64,000 nt of DNA from Cenococcum geophilum (Eukaryota). Below the pieces are notes generated by a model that was not told the origin of the DNA, made no database searches, and saw nothing but the letters and a program-made list of their open reading frames with translations. The DNA lies in the NCBI GenBank assembly GCA_050273025.1, contig CP158635.1, forward strand, positions 21,700,001 through 21,764,000, in the 5' to 3' direction. This document shows positions 7,486-64,000 of this stretch, one piece after another (positions within the stretch are counted from its first letter, which is position 1; each line of letters opens with the position of its first letter). Both the position numbers and the translations under genes were made by a program.

Positions 7486-7487
7486 TA

Positions 7488-34206: not shown

Positions 34207-34210
34207 GTAT

Positions 34211-34465
34211 CCCTTGCAACGGCAGGGTCCTACGCATAAATAGCCCGTACGCGAACAACAGTTTTTCCAAACAACGCGTATGTTAATACACCACTAATAT
34301 GCCTTTTAATCGTGCCAAAGTTGATAGTGACCTTGTTCGGAAGACTTAATATAAGGTTCCTCCTAATCGCATTGCTAAAAAAGGCCCCCCGAAGCCCTTA
34401 GTCCTATTAATCCAATTGGCTAGCTCTTATCAATAACGGTAGGGCCCATTTTGCCGTTGCAAGGG
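34211..34465. mobile_element. 255-bp MITE or deletion derivative with CCC...GGG ends
   Basis: TIR cccttgcaacggca / tgccgttgcaaggg; absent at the matching site of the inner copy (~25945). Contains a short ATG-started remnant MPFNRAKVDSDLVRKT. Confidence 0.85.
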
Positions 34466-39500: not shown

Positions 39501-39789
39501 ACTACACCGCTAATAATAATAATATAATTTATGGCTAAACGCTACCTTAATAATAAAAGTGCTATAAGCTATAGCTTAATACTCTCTTAAAAATAATAAT
39601 ACTAAAAATATTTTGGTTAACTAAGTTTACTATATACGCTATACTACTACCTATAAGTTACTAGAAGATATATCCCTTAGCCTATATATACGCCACTATA
39701 TAATTATAATAGGTTTCGCTATATAGCGGCTATATATAGTATTTAAAACTATCTACAGTTCCATTATACTCTTATAATTATTACTAGCA

Positions 39790-42700
39790 TTAAATAGTCT
39801 TAGTGTCTTTCTTTTTACCTTAGCCTACTTTTAAGCTTAAATTAGCCTTCTCCTTATATACTAACTTAGGACCCTTAAACGCGGATTTTGGAGCTCTTGC
39901 TACACCCGGCCTAAAAAGACCAAAACTAACCAAAAGAACCCTGAAAAAACACCCAGAGAATCCCCCTAAAATGCATATATCGCAGGGAAGGCACACATTA
40001 AACGACGGTGGTTCGTACTCGCGCGCGTCTACTAGAACCACGCCTAGCAATGGCCCTCCACAACAAGAACGGGCGAATACCACACTATAAAGTGGAAAGA
40101 CCCCTATTAAGAAGGCATCTAATAAAATATAAAGCCTATTGGACGCGTTTAGTATCCGTAGTTATAGGGGAGCAATCGTTAGCTATAATAAACTAATACA
40201 GCTAGCAGAATAGCTTCGCCAGTCTAGCGAACCTTAGGCGCCCCTTTAGCAAACCCTTAATTAAATCCTCTAACGGCTAAGCAAAATTAAAAACAAATAA
40301 AATCCCTCCTTACCGGCGAACCGCACCTAGGCCGCCGTAGCTGCGCTTTTATAGTATAGGGAACCTACCCCCCTAAAGATAACATCTGGGTATATAATTA
40401 TAATATAACTAAATATAGAAAAAGTAAAGGGGCTTAGGGGATAATTAGAAACAAAAGTCCTTATAGAGATTTATAAAGAGGTCTATAACGCTATCGCAGT
40501 CTAATACCTTAGGAGCGGAGATATTAAAGTTACCCTAAGGGACTAATAGGTAAAGGAATAAGCCGTAAGGGTAAGGGACAGGCTAGGAGAACGTATTAGT
40601 ATAAAGGTGCTCCGCGAAAATTACCTAGTTAAAGTCTTAGTAGTTCCCCTAAGCCTTAGGGTAAAAAAGGGACGCTAGGCGGATAATACAGTAACTATAT
40701 ATAAGATAGTAAAATAAATGGAACGCCTTATACCAGAACTTGAGATTACCCAAATCTAATGGCTATAATAGGAAAATATAAACTAAGTATATAACGAAAA
40801 TAATAAAAGAATATAAAGGTCGCTAAAGACTCGCTAGGGAGACGCCGGTCGAACGCATAGCTCCCTTATTATTAGCACACATATACTAAGAATATAAAAA
40901 CTCCTTATCTAAAAAGGTATTATTATAAATGGCCTTATATACGATACAAGGCTCTATAACTATAGACTCCGCCTAGAATAATACTATCGCTATATATAAT
41001 AGGGACATACCTAATCCACATGCATAGCATAGGTGTGCTGCGGCTACTGTATAGGCCCCTACGATACAAGATATTGCTTAAATTAAGACTAAATAAAATG
41101 CGTAAACTACCACTAAAGCACACACAAGGCATAGGAGAGAGAAGACTGTATTAAATACAGGAGACGGAAGGTAAGGGCTTAATAGCTACGGGAATAACTA
41201 TACGCTAGGTTATATAAATAGAAATAATAAGCAATAAGCTAGGGGGGCGCAGGTGCCTTTTTAGCGTTTCCTACCTTTAATACTAGGGGGCTAGGCTAGC
41301 TATCCCAAACCTTAACGGGCTAGAAGCGATGCCGCGCGATATCACTAGACTATATAGGGATATAAGGGTTACAGGGGACACAAGGGAGAGGACGCCCTAT
41401 AAGAAGACCCTTATAGACAGCTATAGTAAGCTTAAGACTAGAATAATTAAGAATTAGACTTAACACGGCAAATATAATATTTATAGCCGACTCTTAAAGG
41501 GCATATAGCCAACTAGCAAGAATAGGGGAAGAACTGGAGATAATAACAGATTTAGATATAGAAGCGCTAGTAGGAACATAAGATACGGGAATAGAAAGCT
41601 CTATATAAAATAAGTAGTAACCAGAGTGTAGATATAAGAGATAGAAGTTCTAAATATCCTAGAGAAAGTGGAAATAGAAGAAGTGAAGAACAAAAAAGAG
41701 GCGAAGGACCCTTGCCGGGGGTCCGCCACCTATCCATTATATAGTACAACTGCGGTAATACAAACCACCGTCTTGTAAGGCCCTTACTAGATAGCCTAGA
41801 CCTAGAGAAATACTATATCCTTACTATACAAGAGCCGTATTACAATACCTATATATAATTAATATACTGCCCCTAAGGATTCTAGCTCCTATATAAACCA
41901 AAAGCAGCTATACGCGTATGCTTTATAATTAGTAAGGCTATTAGCCTGTCCTTATGGTTATAGTAGGTAGTTAACCCAGATATTATAGTAATAACAATCT
42001 AGATATATAGGGGACTGGTACAGATTATTAATATATATAACCCTAGGGTTAAAGGGGTCCCATAAACAGAGAATATTATATTAGTAATAAGCTTACTAGA
42101 AACTAAAGGCACAGAGTTTATCCTATTAGGAGATATAAACATCTACTACCCGCAGTAGGGGGGTATCTATATTGCTGCTAAACAACAGGTAGAGTGCCTA
42201 CTAAGAGCTATAAACACCTAGGGCCGTAAGCTGGCCACCCCCCTAGGAGCAATTATATAGTAATAAGGCACTGCTAGAAGCATAATTGACCTTATATTTA
42301 TAGATGAAGGCCTATACCAGAGACTTAAAAGGTATAACCCCGAAGAAGAATAGGCACTCGCCTTAGACTATATCCCCATCTAGATATAGCTAGATCTGGA
42401 TATTAAGGCGTAATTAAATAGTAAAAGATATATAATAAGAAAGCTTAAGATAGACAGCTTCCTTAACACAGTTAAATAATAACTTTAAGACCTAGAAGAA
42501 ATCTACCTAATACTAAATGAGCGAGGCTTATTAGCTACCCCTAAGGAAATTAACTGAAGACTAGAAAGGATCTAGGCAGTAATTAAAAATGGGCTAAAAG
42601 AATACTGCCCGGTCTTAAAACCGGGCCCCTACGCGCGATACGCATGGTCCGTATAATGTGCAATTCTTATTGCCAGCCAATGACGAGCAAGAAGAAAATA

Positions 42701-45460
42701 CATAAGCAGCTATAATTCTAAAGACGAGAGATAATATAAAGACACAAGAAACTAGCTAAAGAATACCCTAAAAAAAGAAGTAAGGAATAGCTGGAGACGG
42801 TTTATAAATAAGCATATTATTAACCTAAGCCTCCCCTATAATAAAGGTCTTTGGAGGATAGCAAAATAGGTAAAAAAAAAAAAAAAGGCGGGACGTTTAG
42901 TAGAAGACCCACACCTTTCGCCCCTGTGAAGATTAGGTGAATTACTAGCCATAAGCGACAATAATAAGAAGGCAAAGATCCTTATAGAAAGATTTTTCCC
43001 TTAACTAGCTTTAGTAGACCTTAGCAATATTACGGGTAAAGCACTAGTGACTTACCTAAGGGTCGACAGCGATATAACAACTAAAGAAATGGCTAGAACC
43101 ATTAGCCGCCTTTTAAATAATATAGTACTAGAACTAAATAGGATCCCAAATAAAGCCCTAAAGACCTGCGGACCACTAATAGCACCTTAGCTTGCGGATA
43201 TAGCTAGAGTATACTTTATAATAGGCTACTACCTAAGACTTAAAAGAGCTATAATAACGTTTATCCTATATAAAGAGGGCAAAGTAGACTACTTACTCCT
43301 AGGGAGCTACCGCCCTATTGCCTTAGAGAATACCCTTAGCAAGATCTTAGAAAGGGTAATAGCGGACTATATAGTAGATACGGCTAAGAAACACGCCCTA
43401 CTACTATAGAGCTAAATGGGGGCAAGAAAGAACCGCTTAACACTATTAGCACTTACGCTACTCGCTACTACTATTAAATCTGCATGGGCGATGCGAAGGG
43501 ACTTTATAGTATTAATGCTTAGCCTAGATATTAGTGGCGCCTATAATAATATACCCCACGAGCGTCTCCTATACATCCTTAGGGTAAAAGGCTTCCTAGA
43601 ATAGATTATATAATTTATTTAAGGGTTTATAAGTTAAAAAGAAATATTACTGGTCTTTAGCGGATATTAAAGCCCCCCTATTATAGTTACAACAGGAATA
43701 CTATAAAAATTACCCCTCTTGCCTATACTCTTCCTTTTCTTTATAAGTAACCTACTTAACTCCTTTAAGGAAGGGGCGACCTAGGGGATAGGCTTTATTA
43801 ATAATATAAACCTAATTATATACGGACTAATAGCCGCAGAGAATTGTAGAATACTAAAGAAAGTATATAATACCTATATAGAATAGGTAAGACGATATAG
43901 AATTCAATTCTTACTAAAGAAATACTAGCTAATCTATTTTATAAGAAAACGCAACCAATCTATAGATCTTTAGTATATAATTCGCATCTAAGGCTTTAGG
44001 GGTTAACTAGTTTAGGGCCTAAGAGTATTAGGAGTATAGGTAGATAGTAAGCTCTAGTGGAGCGTATATGCGGCGCAAGCGGCCTATAAGGGCTAAGTAT
44101 AGTATATCGCACTATCTAGGATCGTTAAATCTATATGGGGTCCATGCTTTTAGAGGTCACGCCTACTATATATAGCAGTTATCCGGCTAACTATAACATA
44201 TAGGTCTAGTATCTAGGACATTAGAGAATCTAAGAAAGGCCCCCCTAAATTACTCCTTAAACTACTCCAAAAGGTCTAAATAGCCTGCCTCTAGAGTATA
44301 ATAGGCGGATATAAGTAAACGGCCACAGCTCTGCTTAAGAAGGAAGCTAATATTCCCCCCCTATAACTATATATTAAAGCCGCTGCAATATAAAGGGTGT
44401 AAAAGAAACGTAACTCTAATATTATAAAGTATATTAAGATACGCCTAAATAAACTATAGAGGGACCCTAGGGCGCCTTATAGGAGAACAAACTAATAACC
44501 CTAAAGTAGGGAAGATATATTAGAGAAACAGGTAAAGAAAGTAAAAGAAGAATAGTACTGCTTTAGGGACCAGGCCTATATAAAGGAGAAAGGGAGACGC
44601 GTAAAAGGCCAGTAAGGATAATAGTAAGAGAGAGAAAAAAGCTAAAATAGAGTATAAAAGAACGCTGGGAAAATATCTACCGTAATATAATACTGGCTAG
44701 ACTAACGCTGGAGAGGCGTATGGGAGTTAAAGGTAGTATAGAGGCTAACTAAGGTAAGAGGAACCTAAGCCGTAGCATGGTTAACGCTATAGGGGGTAAA
44801 CACCTTAGGGCTCTAAGAAGGCCTAATAAAGGTAGAAAATATAATAGTAATACTCTTAAGAACAGGAATAATAGGACTAAAAGACTAGCTCTACTGGGTA
44901 GGTGTCCTAGTAGGTAGCCTAAGATATAAATATAGCTGGCCAAGACAGACACCAAAACATGTAATACTGTTATGCCCCCTACGCACTAACTAAGAAGTAA
45001 TACTCTTAGTAGCTAGCACAGAGAACTATAAGACACTGCTCTTAATATAAAAAGGCCTTAAGGCGGTTACCTAGTAGCTTATTAGCTAAAATGTACTAAA
45101 CTAGTTCTAGGTTGTAAAGGAAATGGCAATAAATAGCGGGGGGGCGAGTAATAGGCGCCCCCTGATAACTCTATAGTAGTAGAGTAAAGTATATAATACT
45201 AGCGCGTCCGTAGGCTTATTACGGCAGCAGTGGTTCTTAAGGAGGTTAAAAAGTAAGGTAGTAGGAGCACTATAGGTGACTCGCAGGCGCCTTGTAGGCG
45301 CCTTATAGGCGAGTCCTAAAAGGCAGGGAGATAGATCACGGGGTTTTCTCAAGTTGAGTCTTTCTTAAGTTGAGTTTTCTCCCTATATGTAAATAAGGAG
45401 TAGTCCGCGTGGGCCTAATAGGGATCCGAATCGGACGTTAAGCAATGAATTATTATTATA
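39790..45460 (+). mobile_element. Near full-length Tad1-like LINE without a recognisable RNase H, RIP-inactivated
   Basis: ORF1 with CCHC knuckles (~40980-41130). ORF2 from ~41730: LSII*YNCG (APE), ILLGDINIYYP*, RT YRPIALENTLSK, MLSLDISGAYNNI, GFINN, then C-terminal RQTPKHVILLCP. 3' tail (TAT)n at ~45450. Start approximate; no TSD found. Confidence 0.9.
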
Positions 45461-46029
45461 TACTAACTTATACAGTAATAACGTAAATTTAGTTAACTTT
45501 AATATCCTTTACTTAATACTTAACTTCTAATTAGCTATAATAGTACTATAGTAAACGGGCTTAGTCTGTTCTTATTAATCTATCTAAGTAAATAGTTACT
45601 TTACCTCCAAGAGCTTATAGCTTAGCTTAACTATAATAGTATAATTTATACGCTATAGGTTAATAAACAGCCTAATTAATATAAAGGTACAAAGTAGGAT
45701 CTACTTAGAGTTATTAGTATTAAAGGTTTACCTAGCCTTAGCCTTTTTAATATTAGATATACCGGCTATATAGCAGAGCACCTTATCTTTACTATATTCT
45801 TTATATAGCCTATTAAACTAATAAGCTAGTATAAAAGGTAAGTAAGTAGTAATAATAATCTTACATACTAAACCATCTATTTGTTTTTTGACATAAATAT
45901 AATTATAAATTTTTTTAGCTTAAAAGAACTTTATATTTTATTAAAAATAGCGGTTAAGCATATTAGTGAACTCCTTACTAAGTAGGTTAGTAGTCTACTT
46001 AATAATAATTAGGTCCTTAAGTATATAAC

Positions 46030-49000
46030 TTTAAGTTTTTAAGCGTTTATTATTAGACTTATTAGACTTATTAAACTTAATTATAATAGGGGTATACTAG
46101 TCCTAGTATTAGACAATATAGGCTATACTTACTACTATTTTCGCGTTAGTATATAACTCGGCTTAGGTGAGTTTTAGTATCTTAGATTTAGTATTTAGAT
46201 CGCTGCTATCTTCCTCCTATATAGCTAGAAGTTCCTTATATTAGCGCCTATACTCTATTCTTACTTAGTCCTCTATAGCTATAATTATAGCCGCCTTAGT
46301 ATTATTAGGGTCGGCCTATAATATAACTAATTTAAGATAGCTATTCTTTAGGATAAGCTTTTACTGGTTAAACTAGAGTATTAACTCCCCTCTATGTATT
46401 TAAAATATTAGAATAACTATATAGAAAAATATAGCTAGTTTACTAAATTTCCTATCTACTATTACTCTAACTAGGTTAGTCTTCGCATCCTTATAAAAAT
46501 AGTTAAATTCCTTCTTCTTTAGCTAGATATTTTCTTCTTTAAGCTTAAGTAGTACTTTAAACTCCGTTCCCTTTAGCTTATTAACTTCTTCCCACTCTAG
46601 CCTCTTTAATCCTACTATAATAAACCACATTAGTTATATTAGGTTTCTATTATTAAGCGTACTAGATATACCCTATATAGTAGGGCTACAATTATATATA
46701 ATATAGTACTCCTTAACTATATCCTTAATAAACGACATTAAAACTCTACTAGTTGCGTTTAAGTAGTATTTATCCTAGAGAATACACCTAACCTATATTA
46801 CACTCTTTAATTTCTAATACGTTCTAGGGGATTAGCTATTTAAGTATTTTTATATATTAGTTTATATAGTAATAAACCCGCATATTAGTTATATAGTAAT
46901 ACAATTTCGCGTAGTAATTAAAAGGAATTAGGTTAAGTGTCTTAGCGCTAATAGTTCTATTATATTAGGGGCAAAACTATAATTATTCTTAAACCTAGCT
47001 TTACCCTATAGGTATAATAGAAGAGCCTTACTAATTAGATATATATTATTATTATTCTCCTATTATTCCTTATTAATCTACTTAAAAGCCTTATAGATTT
47101 ACGGCTATTTATCCTTTTTTAGTTTACTAAATATCTTAACTTTATTATAACTAGGGGCGAGAATTATAATCTAGGGCGAGTTAGGGCGCTTTATAATCGC
47201 GCCGTCTTATAATATTATACTCGCGTCCTTTAGGAATCCTAGTAGGCCTAAAATTAGCATAAGGACGACTAAGTAGCCTCGCTATAGGTCTATAGGGTAT
47301 AGCTTCTTAAAGTTATCTTTGTAGTAGTATATAATTGGCTGCTTTACTACCTATAGGCATTTTAAATCTAGTGGATATATCTTAGGTAGGTAATGGGTTA
47401 TATTCCTAGCAGCTTAGACCTCTTAAATATCTATTATATTCTAATAATAAAAGTAGTTTATTAGCTATTAAGTAATTATTTATACAGTCTTACCTGCGCT
47501 AGGTTTATCTATATAAATACTACCTCCTTTAATCGTCCTCTTTTACTTAAATACCTAAGCTATATATACTACTTAATATAGGCTAAATTTAAAGCCTAAT
47601 ATAAGGCCCCAATTAGGGAGTTTAATTAGGGCGGTCTTAAAGAGTGCTTTTAATAAGATAAATAGGAAATACTCTAGAGTAAGTAAAAGATCCGCCTCTA
47701 TTATATACGCTAGTATACTATTTAGGTTATCCTTCCTAGCCTTATAGAGCTAGGCTAAGAAAGTTTACTAGTTAAGTTCTTCCTTTATATTTACGTCTTA
47801 GTCGTTATTATTAACTAAATCCTTATCTTTATCTCCACTCTCTATATTCTTAGAGTTAGTGTAATATAGGAACTAATTATTATATCCACCAGCACGTTAC
47901 GGCAATTTACTATCCTCTATGGTAATATCTTAAGGGATATTAACGGTTAGTAATATAGTAGTAGGGTTGTTTATTATATCGTTAGGCTAGTATATACCTT
48001 TAGATTTAGTAATAAATTGCGGCGATTTGCTATTATTTATAGCAATTTCTCTAATACCACTATTACTCGCTAATATAGGCTTATAGGCAGATAGGTTACA
48101 TCTTCCCTTTACTAATTACCTTCTACGTATAACCGGCTTATTATTGCTGTTTTTTATAAGGGTGCCTACCGCTAATTCTACTTAAGAGCGTTTCCTACTT
48201 CTATTTAGGTTAGCCTTGCGATTATTTAACTTCCTAGGCGCAGCCGGCTTGCTTTTATTATTTTTTACTAGGGCACTTATTACTAATCTTAGTTAAGGCC
48301 ACTTATTATATCTACCTAATTTAGTCTTACTATTATCTAATTTCTTATATCTAATAGGCTCGCCCTTACTATTTTTATTAGAGCTATATACTGCTAATCC
48401 TAAATAACTCTACTTCTTACCTTTTCCTAGTTTACTCTTGCCGCTAGCCTTACGCGGCATTAGGACTTACTAGCTATCTTTTACGCTACGTCTATTACGT
48501 CTAGGTATCTTAAATTTAATAGCTAGCGGTGTATTATTAGTAGTAGCGACTTAGAAGTTTAAGCTAAGAGGTAAGAGTAATACTATAAGCATAGCCTCCT
48601 TTATACTATTTCTTACTATTTCACTAAAAGCTATAATAAGTATACCCTCTAACCGTATTATAAGGTTTTTATATCTCTATAGCGATATATAGATTTTTTT
48701 TTAGGCGGACTGTTAATATTAAGCTCTATATAGGCTTGCAGTTCCTCTTATAGCTTACCTAGAGCTATATATAGGTTTCTGCTTATTAGATATAAGACTT
48801 AAATTACCCTAACTATTAACCTACCCATTAAGCCTATAGATTAAATTTCAATCTTAATATCTTCTATATTAATTATATTGCTTACTACTAAAGTTGCTGG
48901 TTAAGGCAAAGGGATACTATATAGTAGGGTTATAGTAACGTCTATAGGCTATATCGCATATAGTAGCTAAAGTGGCGTTATCTTATCTTATACTTTAGTC

Positions 49001-49500
49001 TTTAGGGGTAATATATATTTATATAGAGTATACCTACTCTTAGAGGTACTTAGTACCCTCCTTATATAATTAGAATAAGTACTTCTTATAATTTTTAAAA
49101 TTACCTATAGTTTCTAATCCGGTAGAGTATTAGCAAATTATAAAAGTTACTTATAAAACTCCTTAATATACCCTTTTTTTATTATTATAAAGTTACCGCA
49201 ATATATTACGTGCTTAGGCTTAACTTTAATTATAATATCTTTAACACTCTCTTTTAGTCTATTATAGTTTTTAATACTTATTCTAAAGCCTTAAGCAATA
49301 TCTATATCTTTAGTTAGCTTTAGGTTCGCCTTATACTATATATCTAGCTTTACCTATAGTTACATTATTATTAAGTCGCTTATTTAGTTAGGTATATATA
49401 ATATTACAGCATATATTAAGTAGAAGGTAACTATTAAAGTAAAAAGGCTTTATATAGTAACTGGCTAGTGCTATACTAGTATAACTCTAGTATTAAATAT
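46030..49500 (-). pseudogene. Large unidentified intron-containing gene, heavily RIPed; basic ~37-aa repeats near the N-terminus, coiled-coil/acidic C-terminus
   Basis: A long frame broken mainly by TAA/TAG; ~111-bp period at 48133/48244/48355; intron-like segments near 46830-46900, 46615-46680 and 46395-46445. No TE motif recognised. Ends approximate. Confidence 0.45.
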
Positions 49501-49842
49501 AGTTAGAGGTTAGTTATAGAAGAAATAAAAGGTAGAATAAGTAAAGTTAATTAAAAAAAGGTAAAGAGGTAAATTTTATAATTGCCCACACGTGCCCGTA
49601 TAGAGGTAAAATTAGCTATAGTTTACTGCTACTAGTTAGGGTAAATATAGCTAGACTTAGTACTATACAGTTAAATAAGGGCATAATTATATAACTTATA
49701 GGGACTACCCTACCCAGCCTATTTAGGGCTAGGTAGCGGTCTAATACTACTAAACTCTTATAGTTTTTAATATAAGTAATTTATTAAGTGCCTATAAAGG
49801 GGTAACTAGTTATTATGGTATAGTAAAATATAGGAGGTTATA

Positions 49843-50165
49843 GGCGTTACTATATTTCTTATTATTATATAGAGTTGGTATATATACGCGCCGCCAGAGT
49901 TAGAGGGCTAGCCTATATTTATATATATAGGCTCCATTACTATAAAGTATTTACTATATAACAGGTAGTATTTTTAGTAAATAGTAACGTATTATACTTA
50001 TTATAGGCATTACTATATTTCTTATTATTATATAAAGTTAGTAGATATATACGCTACTAGAGTTAAAGGGCTAGCCTATATCTATATATATGGACTCTAT
50101 TACTATAAAGTACTTAATATATAATAGGTAGTACTTCTAGTAGACGGCAATATATTATACTCACT
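49843..50165. repeat. Tandem duplication of ~160 bp
   Basis: taggc(g/a)ttactatatttcttattattatata..agagtta(g/a)agggctagcctatat..attatact occurs at 49843-50000 and 50004-50165. Confidence 0.85.
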
Positions 50166-52953
50166 TTATAATCGCTAGTATTATTATTACACTATATAGT
50201 ACTTAAAGGCCTACTAGATAAGTCTATTTAGAATAATAATTATCTAGTATATAGGATTTATGTCTATATATAAATATCTAGTGCTTATTTAAACGTATAT
50301 CTACTATAAAAGGTAGTAGGAGGTTTTATATCTTATATTATAAGTTTATATAATTAATAGTATTTTATAGCATTTTATAGCATTTTAGGGCATTTTAAGA
50401 CAGTAAATATGTTGTATATACTAGCATTTAGCCGCTTAGCAATATTAACTTATCTTATTATTTATCTATTTAGTATTATATAAGAGGTTAATATTCTACT
50501 ATAGTATTTATTATATTAGAGTCTCTTAAATTTAATATCTTTATTTTAGATCTGTTTAAAACTATATATAGTTTTATAATATCCCGCTCCCCACCTAGTA
50601 CTCTAGTAAGAAATTGTTTAGTTAATAATACCTTTTCTCTTACTAATTAAGGGAGGAAAAGACTTATACTTTCTAGTAGTAGTAAGCTATACTTATTAGT
50701 AATATTTTTAATAGATTATAATATTTAAGTTTCTGTTTACCTATAATATAATTAGCCTACCTATAGTAAAGTACTTTTACTTTACTACTTACTTCTCTTT
50801 TCCCTTACCCTTTTATATATCTATATACTTACATTATAAACTATAAAAGCTTAATAGTACTAGACCATTACCTAGCCTATATTAAGAGATAGGCTAGGTA
50901 AAGTAGTCCCTATAACTTACACTATACCGCGTCTTCCTCTATAGGTTAGTCTTATTACTATAGATTTACCTTTATACGTATTTAACCTATAAAGTATATA
51001 ATTATATACTTTACTACCAAGGCCTTACTTATATAATTTTATTAGGGCGCGCTTTATTTCCTTACCTTTACTAGTTAACCTAACTCTATTAACTACCTAC
51101 CCTTACTTCTACCCTACTAGCATCTACCTCTATAACTAGTGCCTCTATAAATCTATTTAAGCTATAGAGCCTTAAAACGTAGTAAGTTAGCTACCTTATC
51201 TTTGGCCTTAGCTATATAATAGAGAATCTATATTTACTAATATATTTATATAGACTACTACTTAATATAGCCTGCTACTAAAATGGATCTACCTACTAAT
51301 TATTTTATAACTTATAACGTTAACTATATCTATAACCACAAAAAGTTTGCTAAGGATATTATAGTTTTTAAGATTACCTTAACTATAGCAGCTATAGGCT
51401 CCGGTATCTTATAAGGTAATAGTAAGGGCCCTATATTTAATAAGCTTCTTTTTTTAAAGCTTAGTAGTTTATACCTTTTAGCTAACAACGCTTTAAAATG
51501 CTATCTCTATCTACCCACCGGCTATATACACGCTAATTATCCTCTTAAGAAAGTTTCTTAACTTTATTATAGCTATAGTAAAGCTAGTTATTTTAAAGCT
51601 AACTACCTTAACCCTATATATAATAATTATAGGGAAGCCGGTTATTTTAAGAGTAACTATTTTAGTATAACGTGTAACTAATATAGTACTATAGGCTATA
51701 GAAAGCGAGACTATCCCTAGCTATTAGGTAAGAAGAAGTAGACTTACCTAAACTATAGCTCCCTAAACTATTAAACTATCTTCTATAGTTAGGTATATAA
51801 GAACTATAAAGTTATAGGGCATAATATTAATAATTATATAAGTAAACCTACTTTAATTTGGGCGATAGACGTTGTAACCGCTCTAGGCAAGGTAAATATA
51901 CTAGGTACTACCGCTTTAAGTATAGCTGCTACCTCTCTATTACCTAAACCTCTTAATATAGCTAGCTTTTATCTGGTAGCGGATAGCCTAATAAATAATC
52001 TAGATACCTATATAAAGGATAGCAATTTTATAATAGCTAAACCTTTAAATATACTCTAGCTTCCAAACAATAACTACCTTATAGTTTAGTTTATTATATA
52101 AATTATTAAAGAGTATATTATAGTATATAGTATTACATTCTAGGTGTCTTATAAAACCAGTAAAATGCCTACTTATTATTTATATAAGATGGCGTTTATC
52201 TAATTTATAAATACTAACATTACTAGCGACGTTAAGGTTAATACTGCTAATACTACTTCTTTAGTTACTTAATAACTATTACATCTAACCACGCTTAAGC
52301 ATCTTATTTATATTCTCCCGTAAGATGCTATAACCCTATAACTTTACTATATTAGGTTTATTATCGCCTCTAATAAACTTATACTAGGTACGCGTACGTT
52401 ACTTAGTAAGTACTTCTTTATTAATAGGGACTTCAGCCTATTTATACCGTAAATCTATAAAGCTTGGGATATACTATTAAATAGTCCTATAGTTATTATC
52501 TACTTCTTTACGCTAGGCACTAAATAGCTTAATAGTTATATCGCGAGCCTATAATAGTAAAGCGTTAACAATTCTTTAGGTCGCTAGTAGAAGAACTATA
52601 ATATAAATATTTAGCTTAGTATATAGCTCTTAATAAAGGACTAACTATTATATAAAATCCCTATAAGGTATTAGTTTAATAGCGTCCTTAAGTATTTTAT
52701 GGTTTAGTTCTATACCGTAGTTATAAGCCTTAAGGCCGTTAATTAGAACCCCTAGGTACCTACTATTATTTATTTTATTACCTTTTTAAGTAGCGTAGAC
52801 TAAGTCTACTATACTGCTATCTAAATAGTTAATAGTCTTACCCTTTATACTAACTCTATTATTAATATCTTATTCCTAGGTAAAGATGCAAATAGCTAGG
52901 CTAGCTAAAAAGGAGTTATTATTAATACTACTCCCTTTAGCTCCGGCTATAAT

Positions 52954-55900
52954 TGTTACGGACGCTTTAAGTACGATGTTATGACTACTTAGAGAGGAGT
53001 CGGAAGAAGCTAGTTAGTTAATTTAGGCACAGTCTAGGATGGAGCCGATAGAACTATGTGACGAGGAATGGTAACTAAGGTCACGTGGAGTGATCTATAT
53101 AATCTATACGATCTATGGGATCTGTAATAGAGTAGATAGAGCACATATATATTACATACAAGAAGGATTTTATAGGAGTACGGTTGTGTATTTAAGGACC
53201 CTTAGTCCCTACCTAGATAGTTCCTTCCTTGTAGTAATTTTTAGAATATAATTAGAGTTAATTTATTAGGCAACCACTCCACCAGTTGTTATTACGTTGT
53301 TAACTTTTATACTTATATTTCCTACATACCTAGCCCAATAACGAGCCTATCGTAGTTCCTGCTATAAGGTTCCGTTATATAATTACTACCTAGTTATAGT
53401 ATTAATATAAGAAGTCAAACAACATGCCACTAAAAGCAGCCACTACAACGCTATTAACGGTAGCAACTACTTTAAGATCAGGTAACGACACCAGCATGGC
53501 AGATACTAACTCTTAGCAACCAGTAACGGTCGGATAATTACAAGAGATAGTTAACTAGTTAATAACTAACAATATAGTGTTAGAAGAAAGACTTAACGGG
53601 ATAGGAGCGGCAAAAATTAAGCTACTATTAATTAAGAGATTTATAGGGGAAAGATTAAAGCTTAAAGGATTTCTTACGCAGATATATTTTAAGGTCTCGC
53701 AGAAAGGAGTAAAGTTACCAATACCTGTAAATCGGATAGCCTATATAGGACTATTCTTATTAGGAAAAGCACTTAAGTGGTTTAAACCTTATCTTACGGA
53801 GATATAGGCAAATAGAATAACGACCACTAACTAAGACGTGCGATTTATATTCTTAAGTTAGAAAGGATTCGCAGAGCGACTTATACAGATATTTGGAGAC
53901 CTGGAAGAAATAACTATAGCAGAAAGAAAACTCCAGAACCTCATATAATAAACTTTAGTAATTAAGTATATAACATAGTTCTAGACACTAGTAATATAAG
54001 TAGAGTGGAATAATAAGGCGCTTATGGCACAGTATAAGTAAGGACTTAAGGCTAAAGTCTAGGACGTAATTATTCTAATAGAAGATACGGACACCCTAAG
54101 GGAACTATTAAATTAGTTAATTAAGATTAACAATTAGATCTACCAAAGGGAATAGGCTAAGAGAGGTTAGGATAGAGTTTTATAGTTATATAAGGCGCAG
54201 AGTACGCAATAACAAAAGCTAAGTTAGAAACTATAGTATAGCGTAAAGCTAATAGACCTAAGTAGTACTAGAGAAGCCTATAAAAATTAGAGTAAGAAAC
54301 TATAGAAACCTAGAGGATAAGGATTAAGTAATTAAAGGTCTAAGGAGCAGAGGCCGAATTAGGGATCTTAACAGTAGAAGACATTTAGGCGGACTCTATA
54401 GCAAGAAAAATAGTTTAAAAAGGGAGCTTATATAAATTACGGAAAATAGGGTTATTACGTTAGAGACTATAGAAGTAGGTAGAGTTACTATATAGTAAAA
54501 GGCATAAGACTAGCAGACGATATACATATATAGAGGGACGATAATATACTGCGAGGAACAAAAGAATATTTAATTAGAAGTTTTACGTTTTATTATAATA
54601 ACGCATGCCGAATTTATAAGGACGCTAAGTATAGCGTAAGCTATTAGCTATAGGAGCCAGCACCTATAGGATATAGAGGAACTAATAAACCAGCTCGCAG
54701 ATTAAATATTAAGGATGATGATTTTAATATAGGCGAAGCATTCCGTAATAATAAGGCAATAAAAGCGGTCTACTGGGGACACGCAGCCATCGGAGATGTT
54801 ATACTAGAGGTAGAGGATAATTCCACTACAGAATAGGGAACATTAGTGGGGATTAAGACACCACTAGATATAATGTCTATCGCTTTATAAGACGCAAGAG
54901 AAGTAGGATAGCGAACCACTTTAGCACTCAATAAAGGCAAAAGGCTAAAGGCTTAAGATTTTTACAGCGAGATAAGAGATAACTAAGATTCTTAAGATGA
55001 GATAAGGTAAGCTTAAGGACCTATAATAGACAATAACTGATAGAGCAGAGCAATAGCTTAGTTTAGTAATATATAAATAAGCTTAGGACGAAGTTTCCTA
55101 AAGGTATAAAACTCTTAAGATGAGATAAGTGAGATTTAAGACTCTTAAGATAAAATAAGAATACTAAGTAAGCCTAGTTGGACTAAGGCTAGAGCAAAGC
55201 TTAAGTTAGAAGCAAGCTCAGGATTAAAGAATCTAAAGGGTCAAGAATTTGGAGTATAAATTAGGACACCCATAAGTAAGAGGTAAGGAGCTTCTTTATA
55301 GATTAGAGAATCTATAGCGTAAACAGTAATTAAACTAAGAGACGAATATATAGACCTAAAAGACTTACTAGTAAAATATATTATTCGGACTAAAGATCAA
55401 AGAGTTAATACTAAGATTAAGAAGTAAGAGAACTTTGAGAATCTAAGCGCAAGACGCAAACTAAAAGAAACTATAGAAGAGTTTAGACAAAGAATCATCG
55501 CATAGTAAGAACAGAAACTAGATAAGAGATCTAGTATATTAGGACGTATAAAGGACAGAGCACTAGTATAAAGAATTACTAATAGGCCTAGGGTAGGTAT
55601 ACTAAGAGCTAAGTGGCTTACTAAATTAGAAGATAAAGAGGATCTAGGAATCCTAACTAGGTTTAAAAAACAATATATAAAAGGCTGTTATAATATAGTA
55701 ATAAGAAGATACTTCCTTACGGACAAGCCGTATATACTCTAGTAGCTATACTAAAAGTAGTATAGGCAAAGGCATAATAATAAGTGGGAAGATTTCTATA
55801 TATGGTTAGATAAGAAAGTTATCTAGGACCACCTAATTATAAAAAAGGCCATAAATTATATTAAAGGAGCCTTAATTATAACGTTAAAGGATCTAGAGGA

Positions 55901-58900
55901 ACGTTTAGAGGACTAGAGAAGTAAGAGACGCATCTTAATACCTATAAATAAAGTTATAACGTTTAGATTAGCATAATAGAGGTTTAAACTTAAAGATAAA
56001 GACGAGCCAAGAGTTAACCTAAAGCACCTAGTACACTACACGTTATCATAGATTGCGTATATAGACGACATATATAAGATGTATAAGAATCTAAAAGAAA
56101 AGAATCGGAAATACCCTATAAGGATATACTGGATGACAGACAAGCGATAGTATAGGAATGCCAAATATATATATAGATGGCATCCAGCAGAGGTCCAAGA
56201 GGAAGGAAGTTTAGTACTTTAACTAGGAAGATTCCTTATAGAAGAATGCTTAGATAGACAATAGTGGTGGGAATGCCTAGAAAACATGTATCTATAGTAT
56301 ATTAAAGATAAAAAGTGAACTAGGCATTAGCTAAAGAATGAGCTAAGTGTAATAGGATTAAGCAGCTAATAGTTAGGAAAAGTAGAGGCCTATAGGACTA
56401 GAGGGAGCTAGTGGTAGAGCCTTAGACCCTTAAAGGAATTTAAGGACAACACCTAAATTTATAAGTTAAATAGTAAGATTAGCAGTTCAAAGCGCTAATA
56501 GATAGTGGAGTAATAAGGAACTATATCTTACTAGTAGTAGTTAAGAGAATAGAATTACCTTATAGACAAAAGGAGGAACCTTACCTATTAGTAACAATTT
56601 TAGGAGATCCGATAGCCTATGGAGGAGGTATTATTAATCTTAAAATAGGACCTATTTAGATAACTATTAAAGGGAGATAAATTAAGATATCTTTCGATAT
56701 CCTACTATTAGGAAGGGATAAGGCAGTATTAGGGATGCCTTAGTTATAGGAATACAATCTAAGGATCGATTAGATTACAGGTTAAGTTAATATTAGAGAT
56801 ACTTAACGCTATAAAATGTAATAATAAGCCAAGTTAGTATAGTACTAAGTAGGAGCAACTTATAAAGAAATAAAAAAAGGACTAAGTTATATACTAAAGA
56901 GATACTATAAGTATGGCAAGAAACTATAGTTACTAGAAAGTAAAAAGCTGTTAAAGTATATAGTATAGGACTATAAGATAGAATTGGAACTAGGAATAAG
57001 TCTAAAGTTCTTTCTAATCTATAAGCTTACTAAAGAAGAAGGTAGAGTACTAAAAGAGTTTGTTTAGGAGAACTTATAAAAGGGATATATTAGACCATTA
57101 TAGTTATTAGTAGATTATCCAGTACTGTTCGTACTAAAGAAAAATAGCAAACTAAGGCTGTGTATTAACTATAGACAGTTAAACAGCATTACTAGAAAGG
57201 ATAGGTATCTTTTACCCTTAATTAGCGAGATTTAAGATAGAATAGGTAATGCGTAAATCTTTACGAAGATAGATCTGAGATCGGCGTACTATTAGATTAG
57301 AATTAAGGAAGGCAACGAATAGAAGGCAGCCTTTAGGTTAAAGAAAGGACTATATAAGCCATTAGTTATACAATTTAGGCTTATAAACGCACTAGTAATA
57401 TTCTAAAAGCATATTAACAATATATTAGGAGAGCACTTGGATGAATTTATTATGGTATACCTTAACGATATTATTATCTACTTAATAACTAAGGAAGAAC
57501 ACAGAGAACACGTTAAATAGGTCTTAAAGAGACTATAAGAAGAATAGATGCTAGTAGTAATTAAGAAATGCGAGTTCTTTACTAGGAAGACCGATTTTAT
57601 TAGATTTATTATTAAACTAGGCTAACTTAGCATAGATTTAAAGAAGATTAAGGCCATAGTGAATTGGTAAGAACTAGAGAACGTTACGTAGTTAAGATTG
57701 TTTTTAGGGTTTTGTAATTACTGCAGAAGGTTTATAGCATAATAGTTAAAGAATATTAAGCCGTTTACGCGATTAATAAAGAAAGAAGAACCATGGGTAT
57801 GGGGAGAGGAATAAAGAAAACTCTTTAAGAAAGTTAAAGAGTTGTTTACCTAGGAGCCAGTTCTTAAAATCTATTAACTAGGACTAGAGACGGTTATAGA
57901 GATAGATATATTAGACTATATACTAGGGGCATACTTTATATAAAGATATTAAGATAGATAGCACCTAGTAGCATATTACAGTTAGAAGATAACACCACTA
58001 GAGTTAAACTATGACATTTATAATAAGGAGTTATTAGGTATAGTTACAGCATTAAAGAAATAGAGAGCATTCTTGCAAGGCACAGAGAAACTATTTATAG
58101 TTAAGACGGATTATAAGAATCTAATAGGATTCCTAACAATAAAGGAACTTAATTAAAGATAGGTTAGATAGGCAGAGATGCTTGCGGAATACTATTTTAA
58201 GATTTAGTATACTAAGGGTATAGATAATATAAGGGCAGATACTCTAAGTCGTAAAGCTAAACTATAGAACAATAAGAAGCCATTAGGGGCTTTACTATAA
58301 AAAGACATAGATGGATTAATTAGGTATAATTATCCGAAAATTATAGCAACTTAGGAAGAGTTAGAAAAAGTCTATAAGATATTAGAAAGCTTTTAGGTAT
58401 AAAGGATTCTAAAAGCATAACTAGAAGATTTATAAATAGATATATACAAAAATCAAGAAGCGAAGTACATCCTAAAAAGTATAGCAGAGCAGTTTATAGA
58501 AGACTTTTATAAGGGACTAACTTAAGGACATAATAAAGCTACGGGCTTAGTGTTAAGACTTTAGGAGGAGTATATTATTAATAGGATCTAGAGGATAGCC
58601 AGAAAGGTTACTAAAAAGTATTTAGATTACTAAAGAAATAAACTAATAAGGTATAAGCTATATAGAGGGCTATAACCTATTAAAACACCAGAGAGACTAT
58701 AGGAGGTTATATTATAGGACTTTATTATTAAGTTACTAAAATTAAGAGATCCTATTACCAGATAAGATTATAACGCGATCTTAGTAATAGTAGATAAGCT
58801 TACAAAGTAGGGATACTTTATAGCATATATAAAAGAAATCTTAGCGGAAGATGTCGCTAGAATCTATATTAAAGAAGTATTTATAAAATATAGAGCACTA

Positions 58901-60924
58901 AGTAAGATTATATCGGATAGAGATCTAAGATTCGTAGCAGTATTCTAGGAGGTATTCTTAGCAGAGCAAGGAGTTTAAGCAGTAACTTCTACCGCATATT
59001 ATCCGCAGACAGACGGTTAAATGGAAAAATTAAATTAGATACTAGAACAGTATCTAAGGCATTATATTAATTATATATAGAATAATTAGGTATCGCTATT
59101 ACTAGTTATATAGTTTGCATATAATGCAACACCTTAAGAAGGAATAGGTATATTACTATTTAAGGCGAATTATGGATATAAGCTAAGGACATTATTATTA
59201 CTACGGTAAGTAAAGAAAATAAGTAGTATAGCTAAAGAGAGAATAAAGACGTTAATAAATCTTTATGCAGACCTTATAGAATTAGCAAAGAAAGTATAAG
59301 AGAGAATAAAAAAGTACTATAATGCTAAGAGATCTAAGGGACCAGATCTTAAGGAGGGAGATAAAGTATAGCTACTATATAAAAATTTTAAAAGTTAACG
59401 ACTAAGCAAGAAGTTAAACTATGTTAGACTAGGACCTTTCGAAATTATATAGAGGATTTTACTAGTTACGTTTAAGTTAAACCTACCAGCCAAAATAAAG
59501 ATCTACCCTATATAGTATATTGCAATGCTAGAGCTAGTACACAGGAATATTAAGCTACTAGTTTACGAAGCAGACACGTATAGAGGATAGGAAGAAGATA
59601 AATAGCAAGTTTTGAAGATCGTTAGTTATAAGGACATTGACGATAAAACATAGTATAAGGTTAAGTGGATAGGTTATAACGAGACTACCTAAGAGCTACT
59701 AGAAAATTTAAAAAATGCTATAGGAAAGGTACAGGAGTATTGGAAGAGATTAGGTTAGGCAGCATTAACAAAAAAGGATCGCCAAAGAATAAGTTACCTA
59801 AGGGGGACCTAAGAAGAGCAGTTGCCGAGCTATTTAGATCTATTTCCTTCTCTATTAGAAGAGAATCCGTTCTTTTATTACTAAGTTTCTATAAACCTTA
59901 TTTTATAAGTTTCCACTCCTTAGAACGAACCTTCTTACGCACCTTCTTAAGACGGATTAATTAAGCGGATGCCGCAAGACGAGATTCTAGAGCCCGTTAT
60001 TAAGCATCGGCAGCTTCTTATTCAGCATTATAAGAGCGGCGCAGTTCCGCCAGAGTAATAGACAGTTTATTATCTAGCCGCGCAGCAGCAGATTAAACAT
60101 AAGACCCTAAAATAAATTAATTAGGGAACCAGACGACTATTAAAAGCAATAGGTCGCGTATATTTAGCATTAGAGATAGAGTAAACATTATAGGACGAAT
60201 GAATATTCGCTTTAGTGCACTCTAAATAAAAGGACGGTTATTATAAAGATAGGTTCGCTAACGCAATATAAACTAACCCCTTTTTCGAACAGCAAGAATA
60301 TAGAGATGGTATAATCTCACTAAGAGACAATATCGCAGTAATAGTGCGAGCACGACGAGTAGTTAAGGAAGAAGAAATTGCTTTAGGTATAATAAGCAAT
60401 AATATTAACTAAATTAATTAGACGGACATTATACCCCTAGTAAACAACTTAGAGATATTTTAAATCTTTAAGAATAAAGATAAAGAGGAGGGAGATAGTG
60501 TTATAGACGCTTTAAGTACAATATTATAACTACTTAGAGAGGAGTTAAAAGAAGCTAGTTAGTTAATTTAGGTACGGTCTAGGATGGAGCCGATAGAGCT
60601 ATATAACGAGGAATGGTAACCAAAGTCATATGGGGTAATCTGTATAATCTATATAATCTATAGGATCTATAACAGAGTAGATAGAGTACACGTATATTAC
60701 GTATAAGAAGGATTTTATAGGAGTACGGTTGTGTATTTAAGGACCCTTAGTCCCTACCTAGATAGTTTCTTTCTTGTAGTGATTCTCAGAATATAATTAG
60801 AGTTAATCTGTTAGGCAACCACTCCACCAGTTATTATTACGTTGTTGACTTTTGTACTTGCATTTCCTACACATCTAGCCTAATAATGAGCCTATCGTAG
60901 TTCCTGCTACAAGGTTCCGTTACA
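52954..60924 (+). mobile_element. Full-length chromoviral Ty3/Gypsy element, RIP-inactivated
   Basis: 426-bp LTRs at 52954-53379 and 60499-60924; TSD ATAAT (52949-52953, 60925-60929); PPT 60477-60498. Gag from ATG 53424 with knuckle ~54430; protease (LGMP*L); RT ([18 protein letters not shown]); RNase H; integrase (YYPQTDG*ME); chromodomain ~59590-59745. Confidence 0.96.
59720..60390 (-). pseudogene. Antisense two-exon accessory gene of the Gypsy: Zn(II)2Cys6-like cluster + coiled coil
   Basis: Exon 1 60390-60162, 55-nt intron 60161-60107, exon 2 from 60106 in frame. De-RIPed spacing CX2CX6CX13CX2CX8C, then ARLDNKLSITLAELRRSY..ALESRLAASA*LIRLKKVRKKVRSKE. Confidence 0.7.
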
Positions 60925-62164
60925 ATAATTACTATACTTTTATTTTTTTAACTATAGGTGGGTTATAAGTTTATACTAAACCCTATATTTACTTTGGAGC
61001 ATATCCTAAATAGTAATAACTTTATAATAGTTAGTAACCTAAGTAAGGCCCTAATTACGGCATAGGGCATTAAATATCTTATAACTAAGCGTGTCCCTAA
61101 GGTTAAAATCTCCCGAAAAATTAATACTCTACATTACCTATAGTAAGGAGGTAATAGTTTCTATATTAAGCGCTAAATTGCGCTATTTAATAACTTTATA
61201 GATCTCCCGCGTATTAATTACTTTAACTATAATATTGCTAAGTATAGGAAGAACTTAGTTAATAATACCCTTAAGGCCGTTTTACTGCTACTTAATAAAG
61301 AGTAAATAGGTGCCTATACTGCGCTTAAATATATAATAGGCGGTATTTTGCTAATATAAGGCCCTAGTAGTGTTGGGAAATTAACCTTTCTAACTATTTT
61401 AGTACGATACTAGTATTAACTTAGGTTGCCTTAGTAGGATCCTACTAGAATCTAGGTCTTATTACTACTTAATTACTAACTAAATATACTAGCTAAGGTA
61501 ATTAATAATGCGCTTATAGAGGACTATAAGGTACTAATTACGTAAGGCCGTCCCACTAAATTTCCTATCGTTCTTTACTGCTATATATGCTTAATGGAAA
61601 CTAAGGTCTATAAGTAGGATACTATTATATAGTAAATAGCGGCAGGCATTAATACTTGTCTTAAGTATTTTAAGGAATAGGATAACTATGCTATAATTAA
61701 TAAAGACGCGTCTATGCTAAATATAGCATTCCTGCTCTACTATACGTTTAAGGCTAGTAATACTACTAGCTTTAATAAGCGGTTATAGGTTATAGATTTA
61801 TCTAAAGGTTAATAGTTATTACGTCTTATAGGTATCCTAAATAGTAATGGAAACCTATATTCTATTACGGACCCTAATATAACTAAATATACTAAATTCC
61901 GCCAATACTTATACTAATTTACGTTTGGTAATAATATAACGCAAAATAATAAGATAGGATTAACACTTGCGGCTAATATAGTCATCGCAGACCTAGCTAG
62001 AAAGGCTAATATTATTCTTATAATACCCAATATAGTCTCGCAGACTTATATATATTCTATTAGCGCTATATGCGTAGTTTTCTATAATAAGGCTAAGAAG
62101 GCGTCTAAGCTAAGTAGTCTTGCTAGGTTTGCCTAGAGTAGACTATATTTAATCTAGGGAGGTC

Positions 62165-64000
62165 TTTTTTATTTTTATTTTTATATCCGTTGTATTATAC
62201 TACGTATAATACTACGCATGCAGCCTCTAAGCTATGGCGCTATAGTTTTATATATATGAATCCTTTCTAGGCAGCTTAATATATACTAGTAACTATGTCC
62301 TAGTAGTTTATAAATCCCTAACTAGGGATTTACAGCTTCCTAGTAAATACTAGGTTGCTAGCAACTATTAGGTAGTGAGAAAACGGTAGGAAAATACTAG
62401 AAAAAATTGAAATAAAAGTAATCCTAACGCCTGTTCCTGTCCTATTTGTAGTTTATTTCTATTCTTTTGCTTTCTATAGTCTATCTACTAGGACTCTAGT
62501 AGGAGTTACCTCCTTTTAGAGATCCTACTGCTCTTAGCCACTTTCTAATAGCTATTTTTGTCCTACTTAGAAATAGAAAAAGCGCCCCTCTTCCTTTTTT
62601 TGTGCAAAAGAGCTTCTTTAGGGAGAGAGAAGAGCCTATTTGTCTTTGTATTTCCTTTCTATCTTCCCAATATAGTCTGCATTCTAGTAATAGATGCGTA
62701 GGGGTTTGTACCGCGGTACAGTCCCTAAAGCATCTACCTTCTTTATCCTTCCCTATTGTTTTAGAAAAGGATTTAAAGAAGCCTTTTCCTACTTTTAGTT
62801 GAAAGAGAGCCGATTGTAGCCTTTTAGGATATTTATCCTTAGGGGCTTTAAAAGAAAAGGGGTAGTTTCCTTTACAGATTCTAGTATAGTGTTTTCCTTT
62901 ACTTTTATTCTGTTGCCAATTGTCTTTCTACTATTCTAGTATCTTTTCTCTTGCTTGTCTCCCTAAGTAGGCTAGAGAAGTATAAGAAGATTATAGTTTT
63001 CTTTTAGAGAGGCCCTTTTTAGCTAGCTTATCTGCTATTTCGTTTCTATAGATTCCTAAATAGCTAGGAACCCAATAAAAGTTAATAGAGATACCCTTAC
63101 TAGCTAAGTAAGAACAGCTTTACGTAATTTTAAAGACTAGCTCTTGTCCCCCTGTAAGAGAATTAAGCTATAATCTCTTAATAGCCGCTTGGCTATCTAT
63201 AAAGATATAGACTTATTTCTCTTCTAGTCTTTATTATTTTAGGTGTTCTAGGGCCCTATAGACTGCATAAAGCTCTGCGTTTATAATTTCCATATAGGGT
63301 CCTAGATTCCAGTTTGTTGCATATTTAATCCTATTTCTCTCCCCTATTTTACATACAGCAGCTGCATTTAATTTACTATCTTTAGAGCCATCTATATAGT
63401 ATATATCTACTAGGTCCCACTCTAGGGATTCTTATAAATTTTCTACTGGTCTTAGATGTTCTTATACAGCTTCTACTTTACTATTCTTCGAGATAGAGGA
63501 AGATGCAGATATAGGAGGAGACCATGGTTTTTGCCACTCTAGAGAGATTTTCTCTATTTTCCAGTTCTGAACTAGCTGCTAAACCCTAGATACTAGGGAT
63601 AGTAGCTGTGTTTTTGGCTGTAGTAAGTGCCTTATAGTAGAGTTTTTAAAACTAGAATCAGAGCTAGTTGTTAGTTCATCCTTGTCTTTATTATTCTCTT
63701 CTATATAGGCCTTCTTAATTACATGGTTTTCCTTAAATTTTAGGATTCTTAATGCGTAGCTATTACAAAGCTTTTCGAATCTAATTCTAGGAGGAGGGAT
63801 AGAGGCTTCAATCTCTATAGCTTGGCTAGGAGATCCTCTAAACGCTCCTAAAACTAGTTTTAGGGCCTTATTTTATAGAGACTGGTACCTAGCCAGTAGG
63901 TAGTCTCTAGATTTGCTTTTCCACCAGCATTATATTCTATAGTCTGCTATAGTAGTAACACAGGCTATATAGAGCTGCTGTAGGGCTTATAGAGATAGAC
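62165..64000 (-). mobile_element. 3' part of a Tad1-like LINE with RNase H; continues past the right edge
   Basis: T-rich tail 62165-62182. Minus strand YYIDGSK..AAAV, AELYAVYRAL, IFIDSQAAI, FYWVPSYLGIYRNEIADKLAKKG, and C-terminal CFRDCTAVQTPTHLLLEC. Confidence 0.93.

Follow-up and report, generated by a model that had tools for sequence, protein, structure and literature searches.

Among the fungal Plavaka transposons (CMCT clade), PlavakaA has TGT..ACA termini and a 2-bp target-site duplication, PlavakaB has CATCA..TGATG termini and a duplication of 2-3 bp, and TET/JBP genes are carried as cargo; these genes are proposed to counter silencing (PMC12730594). In basidiomycetes they have been passed between unrelated elements. 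In the red alga Bostrychia, giant Plavaka elements of 17.4-19.1 kb have undergone a large expansion and hold, besides the transposase, three accessory genes (a methylase/SET protein, a 2-oxoglutarate (2OG)-oxygenase and one of no known kind), for which a role at the chromatin of the element itself has been proposed; these genes, like genes of VANDAL elements in the same work, are proposed to counter silencing, and the word helicase is absent from its main text (10.1101/2025.02.11.637652). Here we describe an element of similar size in the fungus Cenococcum geophilum. A 64,000-nt stretch of contig CP158635.1 (positions 21,700,001 to 21,764,000, hereafter the window) holds a dead copy of a zinc-knuckle, Upf1-like superfamily 1 (SF1) helicase gene, which belongs, together with an SNF2-type ATPase gene, to a 19.8-kb Plavaka-type transposon. 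Comparisons with published systems refer throughout to the available text of each source.

The element resembles PlavakaA and PlavakaB in its transposase (PF18759), short terminal inverted repeats (TIRs), 2-bp duplication and possession of an accessory gene. Its termini, CGTCA..TGACG, nevertheless differ from both published patterns, although the CATCAG terminus of PlavakaB is one base from its own CGTCAG. It is about 20 kb long, compared with 9.9 kb for one consensus length in that work, its cargo is two ATPase motors rather than TET/JBP, and its host has repeat-induced point mutation (RIP), which suggests an ascomycete, whereas the described families are from Agaricomycotina (PMC12730594). 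SF1 helicases of viral origin in insect LINE and LTR retrotransposons are likewise accessory, transcribed and intact in their motifs, and are proposed suppressors, with weak silencing suppression reported; they are fused into retrotransposon polyproteins, whereas the present gene stands alone in a DNA transposon (PMC6338049). X3X3R8 of the ascomycete Parastagonospora nodorum, compared by description only, is likewise RIPed and multi-copy and holds SNF2/Rad5-like helicase genes, but it is presented as an endogenous cluster with a ubiquitin-conjugating enzyme, and no transposase, TIR or SF1 helicase is described for it in the available text (PMC3017866). A review of giant transposons mentions, in its available text, neither Plavaka nor SNF2 (PMC6431247), and DNA2-NAM7 helicases have been noted in Pyrenophora, with no arrangement of the present kind given in the available text (10.1101/2025.11.13.688278). 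Giant Plavaka elements with accessory genes are already known; a Plavaka/CACTA element with Upf1-like or SNF2 cargo was not found in the literature searched, which mostly lay outside subscription journals and Repbase.

The helicase gene and its carrier

The window locus is a mutation-killed, interrupted form of a gene for a 1355-aa zinc-knuckle and Upf1-like SF1B helicase. A first-pass annotation, made from the sequence alone, had proposed that two separated halves become one gene once an inserted Gypsy is taken out, and this holds: with the Gypsy and one copy of its ATAAT duplication removed, joining 52953 to 60930 preserves the reading frame, the halves are contiguous in other genomic copies, and an intact homologue from public assemblies (P0003, see below) aligns to both (aa 1-561 with 51283-52953, 52% identity, E 2e-149; aa 571-973 with 60958-62166, 60% identity, E 7e-127). 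The region of aa 1-561 comprises a predicted split pleckstrin homology (PH)-like fold, the knuckles, an acidic linker, a stalk and the start of the 1B barrel. The CCHC knuckles number six, rather than the four first counted. The Q motif (61303), Walker A (61360-61383), motif Ia (61456-61473) and Walker B (62086-62091) stand in the proposed Upf1-family order, and intact P0003 confirms them.

The window is AT-rich, with a RIP signature across nearly its whole length. The helicase halves are heavily damaged, as the first-pass annotation had said (TpA/ApT 1.71-1.85; (CpA+TpG)/(ApC+GpT) 0.23-0.34), but they do not equal the neighbouring transposable elements in this respect; they are more strongly RIPed than both the Gypsy (1.56/0.53) and the long interspersed nuclear element (LINE, 1.70/0.70), which fits the helicase being older. 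Translations of the two halves, with X at stops, gave no Pfam match (0/2), so that the motif calls in the window needed the outside support of P0003. RIPed helicase and knuckle pieces from other copies also failed to match Pfam (0/3), and a PDB search with the RIPed helicase alignment returned 0 matches. Of the three Pfam families that had been suggested, P0003 matches zf-CCHC (E 2e-21) and AAA_12 over the cut-off and AAA_11 below it (22.1 vs 27 bits). Motifs III-VI, which had been expected beyond the LINE, are not found by P0003 in the rest of the window or in the 28 kb downstream, because element positions 9794-12123 (2.3 kb), which bear them, are deleted in this copy.

The gene was rightly suspected to be multi-copy. 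With the 1.27-kb 3' half as query, the 178-Mb genome yields 185 first-look candidates, and the 40 that were scored are the window copy itself (100%) and 39 others at 88-91% identity. Among 17 copies picked from the best matches, homology begins about 8.5 kb before the junction and stops 11.3 kb after it, and the element ends there in inverted repeats, 26-28 bp long. Copies without interruptions are 19.8-20.4 kb in length. Exact occurrences of the end pattern in the genome number 230 (111 forward, 119 reverse), compared with 0 for a reversed control; these include short derivatives with different interiors, so that our figure of about 100 RIP-dead copies is an order of magnitude only. Of 20 end pairs, matched by adjacency and with interiors fetched for only some, 17 have matching flanking dinucleotides (12 TA, plus CT, CG, AA, AA and TT). 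TA flanks 38 of 60 ends, so that some of the TA matches would occur anyway, and it is the five non-TA pairs that carry the case for a 2-bp duplication.

Flank comparison thus places the helicase at a fixed position inside a large TIR element, and supports the earlier interpretation of a helicase amplified within such an element; the carrier, which the first-pass annotation had not named, is a Plavaka DDE transposon. The Pfam family Plavaka is matched over the cut-off by all four transposase pieces taken from single RIPed copies (E 8e-19 to 7e-07). The gene order was read from a reference in which RIP was computationally reversed (deRIP; Table 1), built from 54 aligned segments. Over 500,016 positions, the copies depart from it by 85,163 changes of the C>T/G>A kind and by 731 transversions; how the reference was made dictates the direction of the transitions. 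Plavaka transposases have a DDE triad with C(2)C and H(3-4)H motifs; in the deRIP reading of the transposase, a CxxC and Plavaka-like strings can be seen. Among 18 helicase-picked segments of at least 20 kb, SNF2 sequence occurs in all 18 and transposase sequence in 17. The SNF2 gene is a divergent one: its intact form (P0090, 1328 aa) has SNF2-rel_dom and Helicase_C both just over the Pfam cut-off, and its weak matches include RAD54-like proteins and HELLS. The DUF6532-like gene matches in a single RIPed copy just under the cut-off (E 5e-5), and the middle gene has no Pfam match in the single frame tried. A RIPed copy on a soil metagenome contig (L158) repeats the order from helicase to DUF6532-like gene. 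We regard it as close to certain that the helicase is an accessory gene of a 19.8-kb Plavaka-type (CMC/CACTA-related) cut-and-paste transposon.

A Helitron, with HUH Rep and PIF1 and with neither TIR nor target-site duplication, was considered and is ruled out by the TIRs, the duplication, the DDE transposase and the lack of a PIF1 or Rep family on P0003. In the element frames scanned (part of the six), we found no Starship captain (tyrosine recombinase) and no PolB or capsid gene of the Polinton or virus-like kind.

Several further observations concern the element family. The soil contig L158 and a genomic copy (G000:C1:19848371-19861190) both lack 355 bp (element 11250-11605), which may mark a subfamily. 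Two elements of 478 and 496 bp (L118 and L119, G000:C1:12832308-12832785 and C1:27432708-27433203) have the same 26-bp TIR and a 2-bp duplication around a different interior, and may be partners, of the type of miniature inverted-repeat transposable elements, of this element's transposase or of a sister family's. Other Plavaka families are also present (123 matches scored of 266 candidates); the domain is broken in some copies and unbroken in others, one copy has just five stops, and the best match is at G000:C7:7211547-7212527.

Intact copies, relatives and fold

Within the genome, the protein queries P0019 (one of the distant relatives described below) and P0003 gave 133 and 128 candidates. 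All 34 that were scored for P0003 contain many TAG/TAA stops and are RIP-dead, and among those scored (35/133 and 34/128) there are only dead copies of this family, with neither a second helicase family nor an intact copy. Intact members were found elsewhere. A profile of 10 RIPed helicase copies, searched against proteins of public assemblies, retrieved P0003 (E 1e-291), whose cluster has 13 members; that of the SNF2 protein P0090 has 12. Both clusters include contigs of 20,005, 19,995, 12,438 and 11,654 bp, and element-sized contigs of about 20 kb are expected from a collapsed multi-copy repeat. All four full-length intact helicases (93-97% identity) keep the catalytic motifs, one of them with 7/8 tested strings.

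An un-RIPed 2-kb piece (L159, GC 0.49) has at least half of its words in 10 of 24 listed sequencing runs. Four runs were aligned to a 10-kb RIPed copy. In one RNA run (X9), the helicase, the transposase and the middle gene are represented by separate un-RIPed contigs. Those of the helicase and the transposase are 4396 and 3454 nt long, at depths of 52 and 378, and that of the middle gene is the deepest of the three (depth 743); the contigs give neither strand nor true expression level. Relative to the RIPed copy they show 548 A>G and 571 T>C differences, vs 25 C>T and 29 G>A. The transposase contig leaves out 177 bases and has 122 between, a net 55 short, and a 55-nt GT..AG stretch at the skip site joins the two transposase frames, while a contig of DNA run X1 is continuous across this site. 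The un-RIPed contigs, and a 55-nt intron that is missing from X9 and continuous in X1, point to spliced mRNA from an undamaged, live element, and suggest that undamaged copies are transcribed outside this genome. Over the middle gene (L160:3341-4819), the X9 contig has several skips that may also be introns.

P0003 carries, in order, motifs Q, I, Ia, II, III, IV, V and VI, as judged from the protein and from the family alignment. Ten aligned members, at 25-41% identity, show little or no variation in Walker A, Walker B and residues of motifs III-VI. Word-index searches with the helicase and SNF2 queries retrieved their own clusters alone; the distant family came from an unindexed profile search only, which gave 70 proteins at E < 0.001. 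The closest of these align with most of P0003 at 30-40% identity, and of 15 long relatives scanned, 8 have zf-CCHC and 13 have AAA_12. One relative is named, a hypothetical protein of Kalmusia sp. (KAJ4286924.1). Among viral contigs there were 6 pattern matches and 0 relatives.

The host genome has 23 AAA_12 matches, and the 18 loci fetched are at best 28% identical to P0003. In a midpoint-rooted tree of 14 relatives and 10 host domains, which omits 8 host stretches with introns or partial matches and has several long branches, 12 of the 14 relatives form a clade (100/98) apart from the host helicases, and the two weakest lie near host locus L146. The clade is also separate from host locus L139, which we read as UPF1 by its motifs. 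This sequence comparison places the helicase in an uncharacterised clade, distinct from the SF1B helicases native to the host. Locus L146 itself (G000:C6:14489185-14489775) is an intact, divergent host SF1 helicase, the closest host relative (28%), near the base of the clade, and is possibly a sister family or an old domestication.

The helicase shares motifs Q-VI, AAA_12 and the overall fold with UPF1/NAM7, SEN1/SETX, IGHMBP2, DNA2, ZNFX1 and Aquarius. A model of the C-terminal 838 aa (predicted local distance difference test, pLDDT, 76) has Upf1 as its best Foldseek match (E 2e-23, TM score 0.47-0.53 by query, 17% identity, 739 columns); the top 13 rows are Upf1, followed by SETX/Sen1, Dna2, ZNFX1 and IGHMBP2. 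Sequence search likewise ranks Upf1 first (E 7e-13), and includes Air2 among the knuckle matches. The protein differs from the UPF1/NAM7 group in its low structural identity and in having six gag-type knuckles in a predicted split PH-like fold. Pfam finds no CH domain family on P0003, which together with the separation from L139 speaks against UPF1 orthology, and no NF-X1-type fingers, which with a C-terminus that is a short acidic tail speaks against ZNFX1/Hrr1 membership.

Foldseek on the N-terminal part outside the knuckles gave no match, and in BFVD the fold search returned only knuckle proteins and weak helicase rows. In the N-terminal model (pLDDT 66), residues ~16-62 pair with ~265-432 in the manner of PH-superfamily folds (Z 6.5-8.1) with the knuckles looped out; such scores are common by chance and the rows are tied, with plant RDR2 at the top. 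We treat a split PH-like fold around the knuckle array as a lead only.

Possible role of the helicase

Enzymes of the SF1B group move 5' to 3' along single strands and remodel ribonucleoproteins, CCHC arrays bind single-stranded RNA, and SNF2 ATPases move or strip proteins on DNA. From what is known of these families, the element's own transposase alone would excise and insert it, the helicase would be driven by ATP 5' to 3' along single-stranded nucleic acid, and the array of six knuckles would grip RNA. It may thus act on the element's RNA, by stripping silencing or decay complexes from transcripts or by removing RNA:DNA hybrids; the SNF2 ATPase, which is transcribed divergently, may act on the element's chromatin. 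Together they would sustain the expression of a large element in the face of host silencing. RIP killed the family in this genome all the same, and the window copy then took up the Gypsy, the LINE and the deletion.

We hold these steps with different confidence. The ends, 2-bp duplications, transposase, fixed gene order and RIP-dead copies are observed directly. That the helicase has a maintained function for the element is probable. The explanation as a whole, an accessory helicase gene serving an autonomous Plavaka-type transposon, we favour slightly. An RNA-level anti-silencing role is plausible but falls somewhat short of an even chance. It is doubtful, though conceivable, that the clade of zinc-knuckle, PH-fold, Upf1-like helicases is a dedicated transposon counter-defence that forms, with a co-transcribed SNF2 remodeller, a two-motor module (RNA and chromatin), lets giant DDE transposons of ascomycetes escape RNA interference or heterochromatin, and is passed between unrelated elements; the exchange of TET/JBP genes noted above would be a parallel.

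Several points weigh against the favoured explanation. No sequence feature tying the helicase to silencing was seen, the Upf1-like IGHMBP2, SEN1 and DNA2 act on DNA too, and their folds rank near Upf1 in Foldseek. The family of the distant relatives may consist of ordinary fungal genes elsewhere. The cargo did not protect the family from RIP here, and 3 of the 20 end pairs have unlike flanking dinucleotides. The link between the intact proteins and whole intact elements is a putative one, through matching contig sizes. Expression is seen in one RNA library (X9), no contig spans helicase and transposase in the runs aligned, and raw-read RNA run X24 has no real coverage (58 reads, 97% running on into unlike sequence).

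The best-surviving rival is that the helicase, and SNF2 with it, was captured from a lineage in which both are ordinary host genes and is carried without benefit. The intact copies, 3-7% apart in protein, may be too young for decay, and the Kalmusia sp. relative lies on a 661-kb contig, where its annotation is that of a hypothetical gene. In another fungus, multi-copy repeats that are RIPed and hold SNF2-like genes have been read as endogenous clusters (PMC3017866). The 18 fetched host loci, however, include no parent, the clade of 12 relatives stands apart from the 10 host helicases, and the gene is whole, intronless, transcribed and at a fixed position in the element. We consider passive carriage unlikely. 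Lower still we place a role of helicase and SNF2 in transposition at the DNA level, by opening chromatin at ends or targets, clearing R-loops or helping to repair the 20-kb gap with a rise in copy number. Both proteins are motors that work on nucleic acids, the DDE element that carries them is very large, the SEN1/SETX, DNA2 and IGHMBP2 folds are almost as close as Upf1, and the RAD54-like and HELLS matches of SNF2, although weak, point the same way; but tandem CCHC knuckles mostly bind RNA, Air2 is among the matches, and the red-algal giant Plavaka elements (17-19 kb) multiply with no helicase mentioned in the main text (10.1101/2025.02.11.637652).

A benefit to the host, for example against mycoviruses, for which the element would be partly retained, is very improbable. 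It draws on family resemblance alone, the Upf1-like ZNFX1 and MOV10 acting against viruses in animals, and on a similar antiviral proposal for insect retrotransposon helicases (PMC6338049), while all 34 scored genome copies are dead and no domesticated copy was found among the scored candidates. Nothing was found in favour of a single-copy host gene caught by RIP leakage, or of a helicase of the Helitron/PIF1 type, and both can be dismissed in view of at least 39 other copies at 88-91%, the TIRs, the target-site duplication, the DDE transposase and the lack of a PIF1/Rep family on P0003.

To our knowledge, few eukaryotic DNA transposons have counter-silencing genes of their own. Here one giant Plavaka element carries two whole motor genes, from families that serve silencing and decay in hosts. 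Intact, transcribed copies exist, so that the role of an Upf1-like helicase and an SNF2 ATPase in a cut-and-paste element is open to bench test. With this element, Plavaka gains a terminus variant and a likely ascomycete branch, and hypothetical fungal helicases of one family are placed in a mobile context. Should the two genes prove inert passengers, the result is a good annotation and nothing more.

Features of the window copy and its surroundings

The Gypsy LTRs (long terminal repeats) lie at 52954-~53380 and 60499-60924, with ATAAT flanks at 52949-52953 and 60925-60929. The region between the divergent SNF2 and helicase genes contains a 163-bp tandem duplication (49838-50163) and an inverted repeat (49692-49722 / 50889-50919). 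Past the window the element picks up again at 67,340, and this part holds the Plavaka transposase and the DUF6532-like gene.

Table 1. Coordinates of the window copy, in window positions unless given as genome (G000) or element positions.
Feature	Position	Strand	Remarks
Left target-site duplication, TA	39012..39013	+	matching TA past right end, 77,585-77,586 (window-extended coordinates)
Left TIR, 26 bp	39014..39039	+	begins CGTCAGG
Element ~1-1002	39014..39867	+	subterminal short repeats and final SNF2 codons
Later 5.6-kb insertion, foreign to element	39868..45455	.	~15-bp duplication on both sides
SNF2-type ATPase gene, RIP-dead	45456..49368	-	head-to-head with helicase; tblastn 54-57% to intact form P0090
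Intergenic region common to SNF2 and helicase genes	49369..51282	.	genes divergent
Helicase gene, 5' part (aa 1-561)	51283..52953	+	RIP-dead; aligned to intact P0003
Six CX2CX4HX4C zinc knuckles	51499..51837	+	most Cys/His codons RIPed to Tyr; mapped from P0003
Ty3/Gypsy inside helicase gene	52954..60924	+	LTR pair; Pfam reverse transcriptase (RT), RNase H, Ty3 capsid
Helicase gene, 3' part (aa ~562-973)	60930..62165	+	Q motif, Walker A, Ia, Walker B; aligned to P0003
3' part of 5'-truncated LINE	62166..64000	-	RT, RNase H; at the deletion
Right TIR	G000:C1:21777559-21777584		13.6 kb past window end
SNF2-type ATPase gene	element ~4960-960	-	deRIP reference
Helicase gene	element 6877-10960	+	deRIP reference
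Middle gene, no family assignment	element ~11.7-13.1 kb		deRIP reference; partly deleted in window copy
Plavaka transposase gene, two frames	element ~13.4-16.6 kb	+	deRIP reference
DUF6532-like gene	element ~17.4-18.4 kb		deRIP reference

The insertion near the end of the SNF2 gene would be LINE-like by its ~15-bp duplication. Between the LINE and the resumed element, a segment (L061:3100-5340, G000:C1:21765100-21767340) has two PlavakaB-like ends of CATCAG plus a T-run. Tandem repeats lie between these two ends, and the 2.3-kb deletion stops at one of them, so that it may be an adjacent deletion. Elsewhere in the window, a 47-bp inverted repeat (2793-2839 / 6385-6431, 91%) bounds a 3.6-kb, partly less-RIPed stretch that is probably another TIR transposon, and nested direct repeats at 20600-35700, spaced 4.5, 5.7 and 8.4 kb, are probably stacked retrotransposons.

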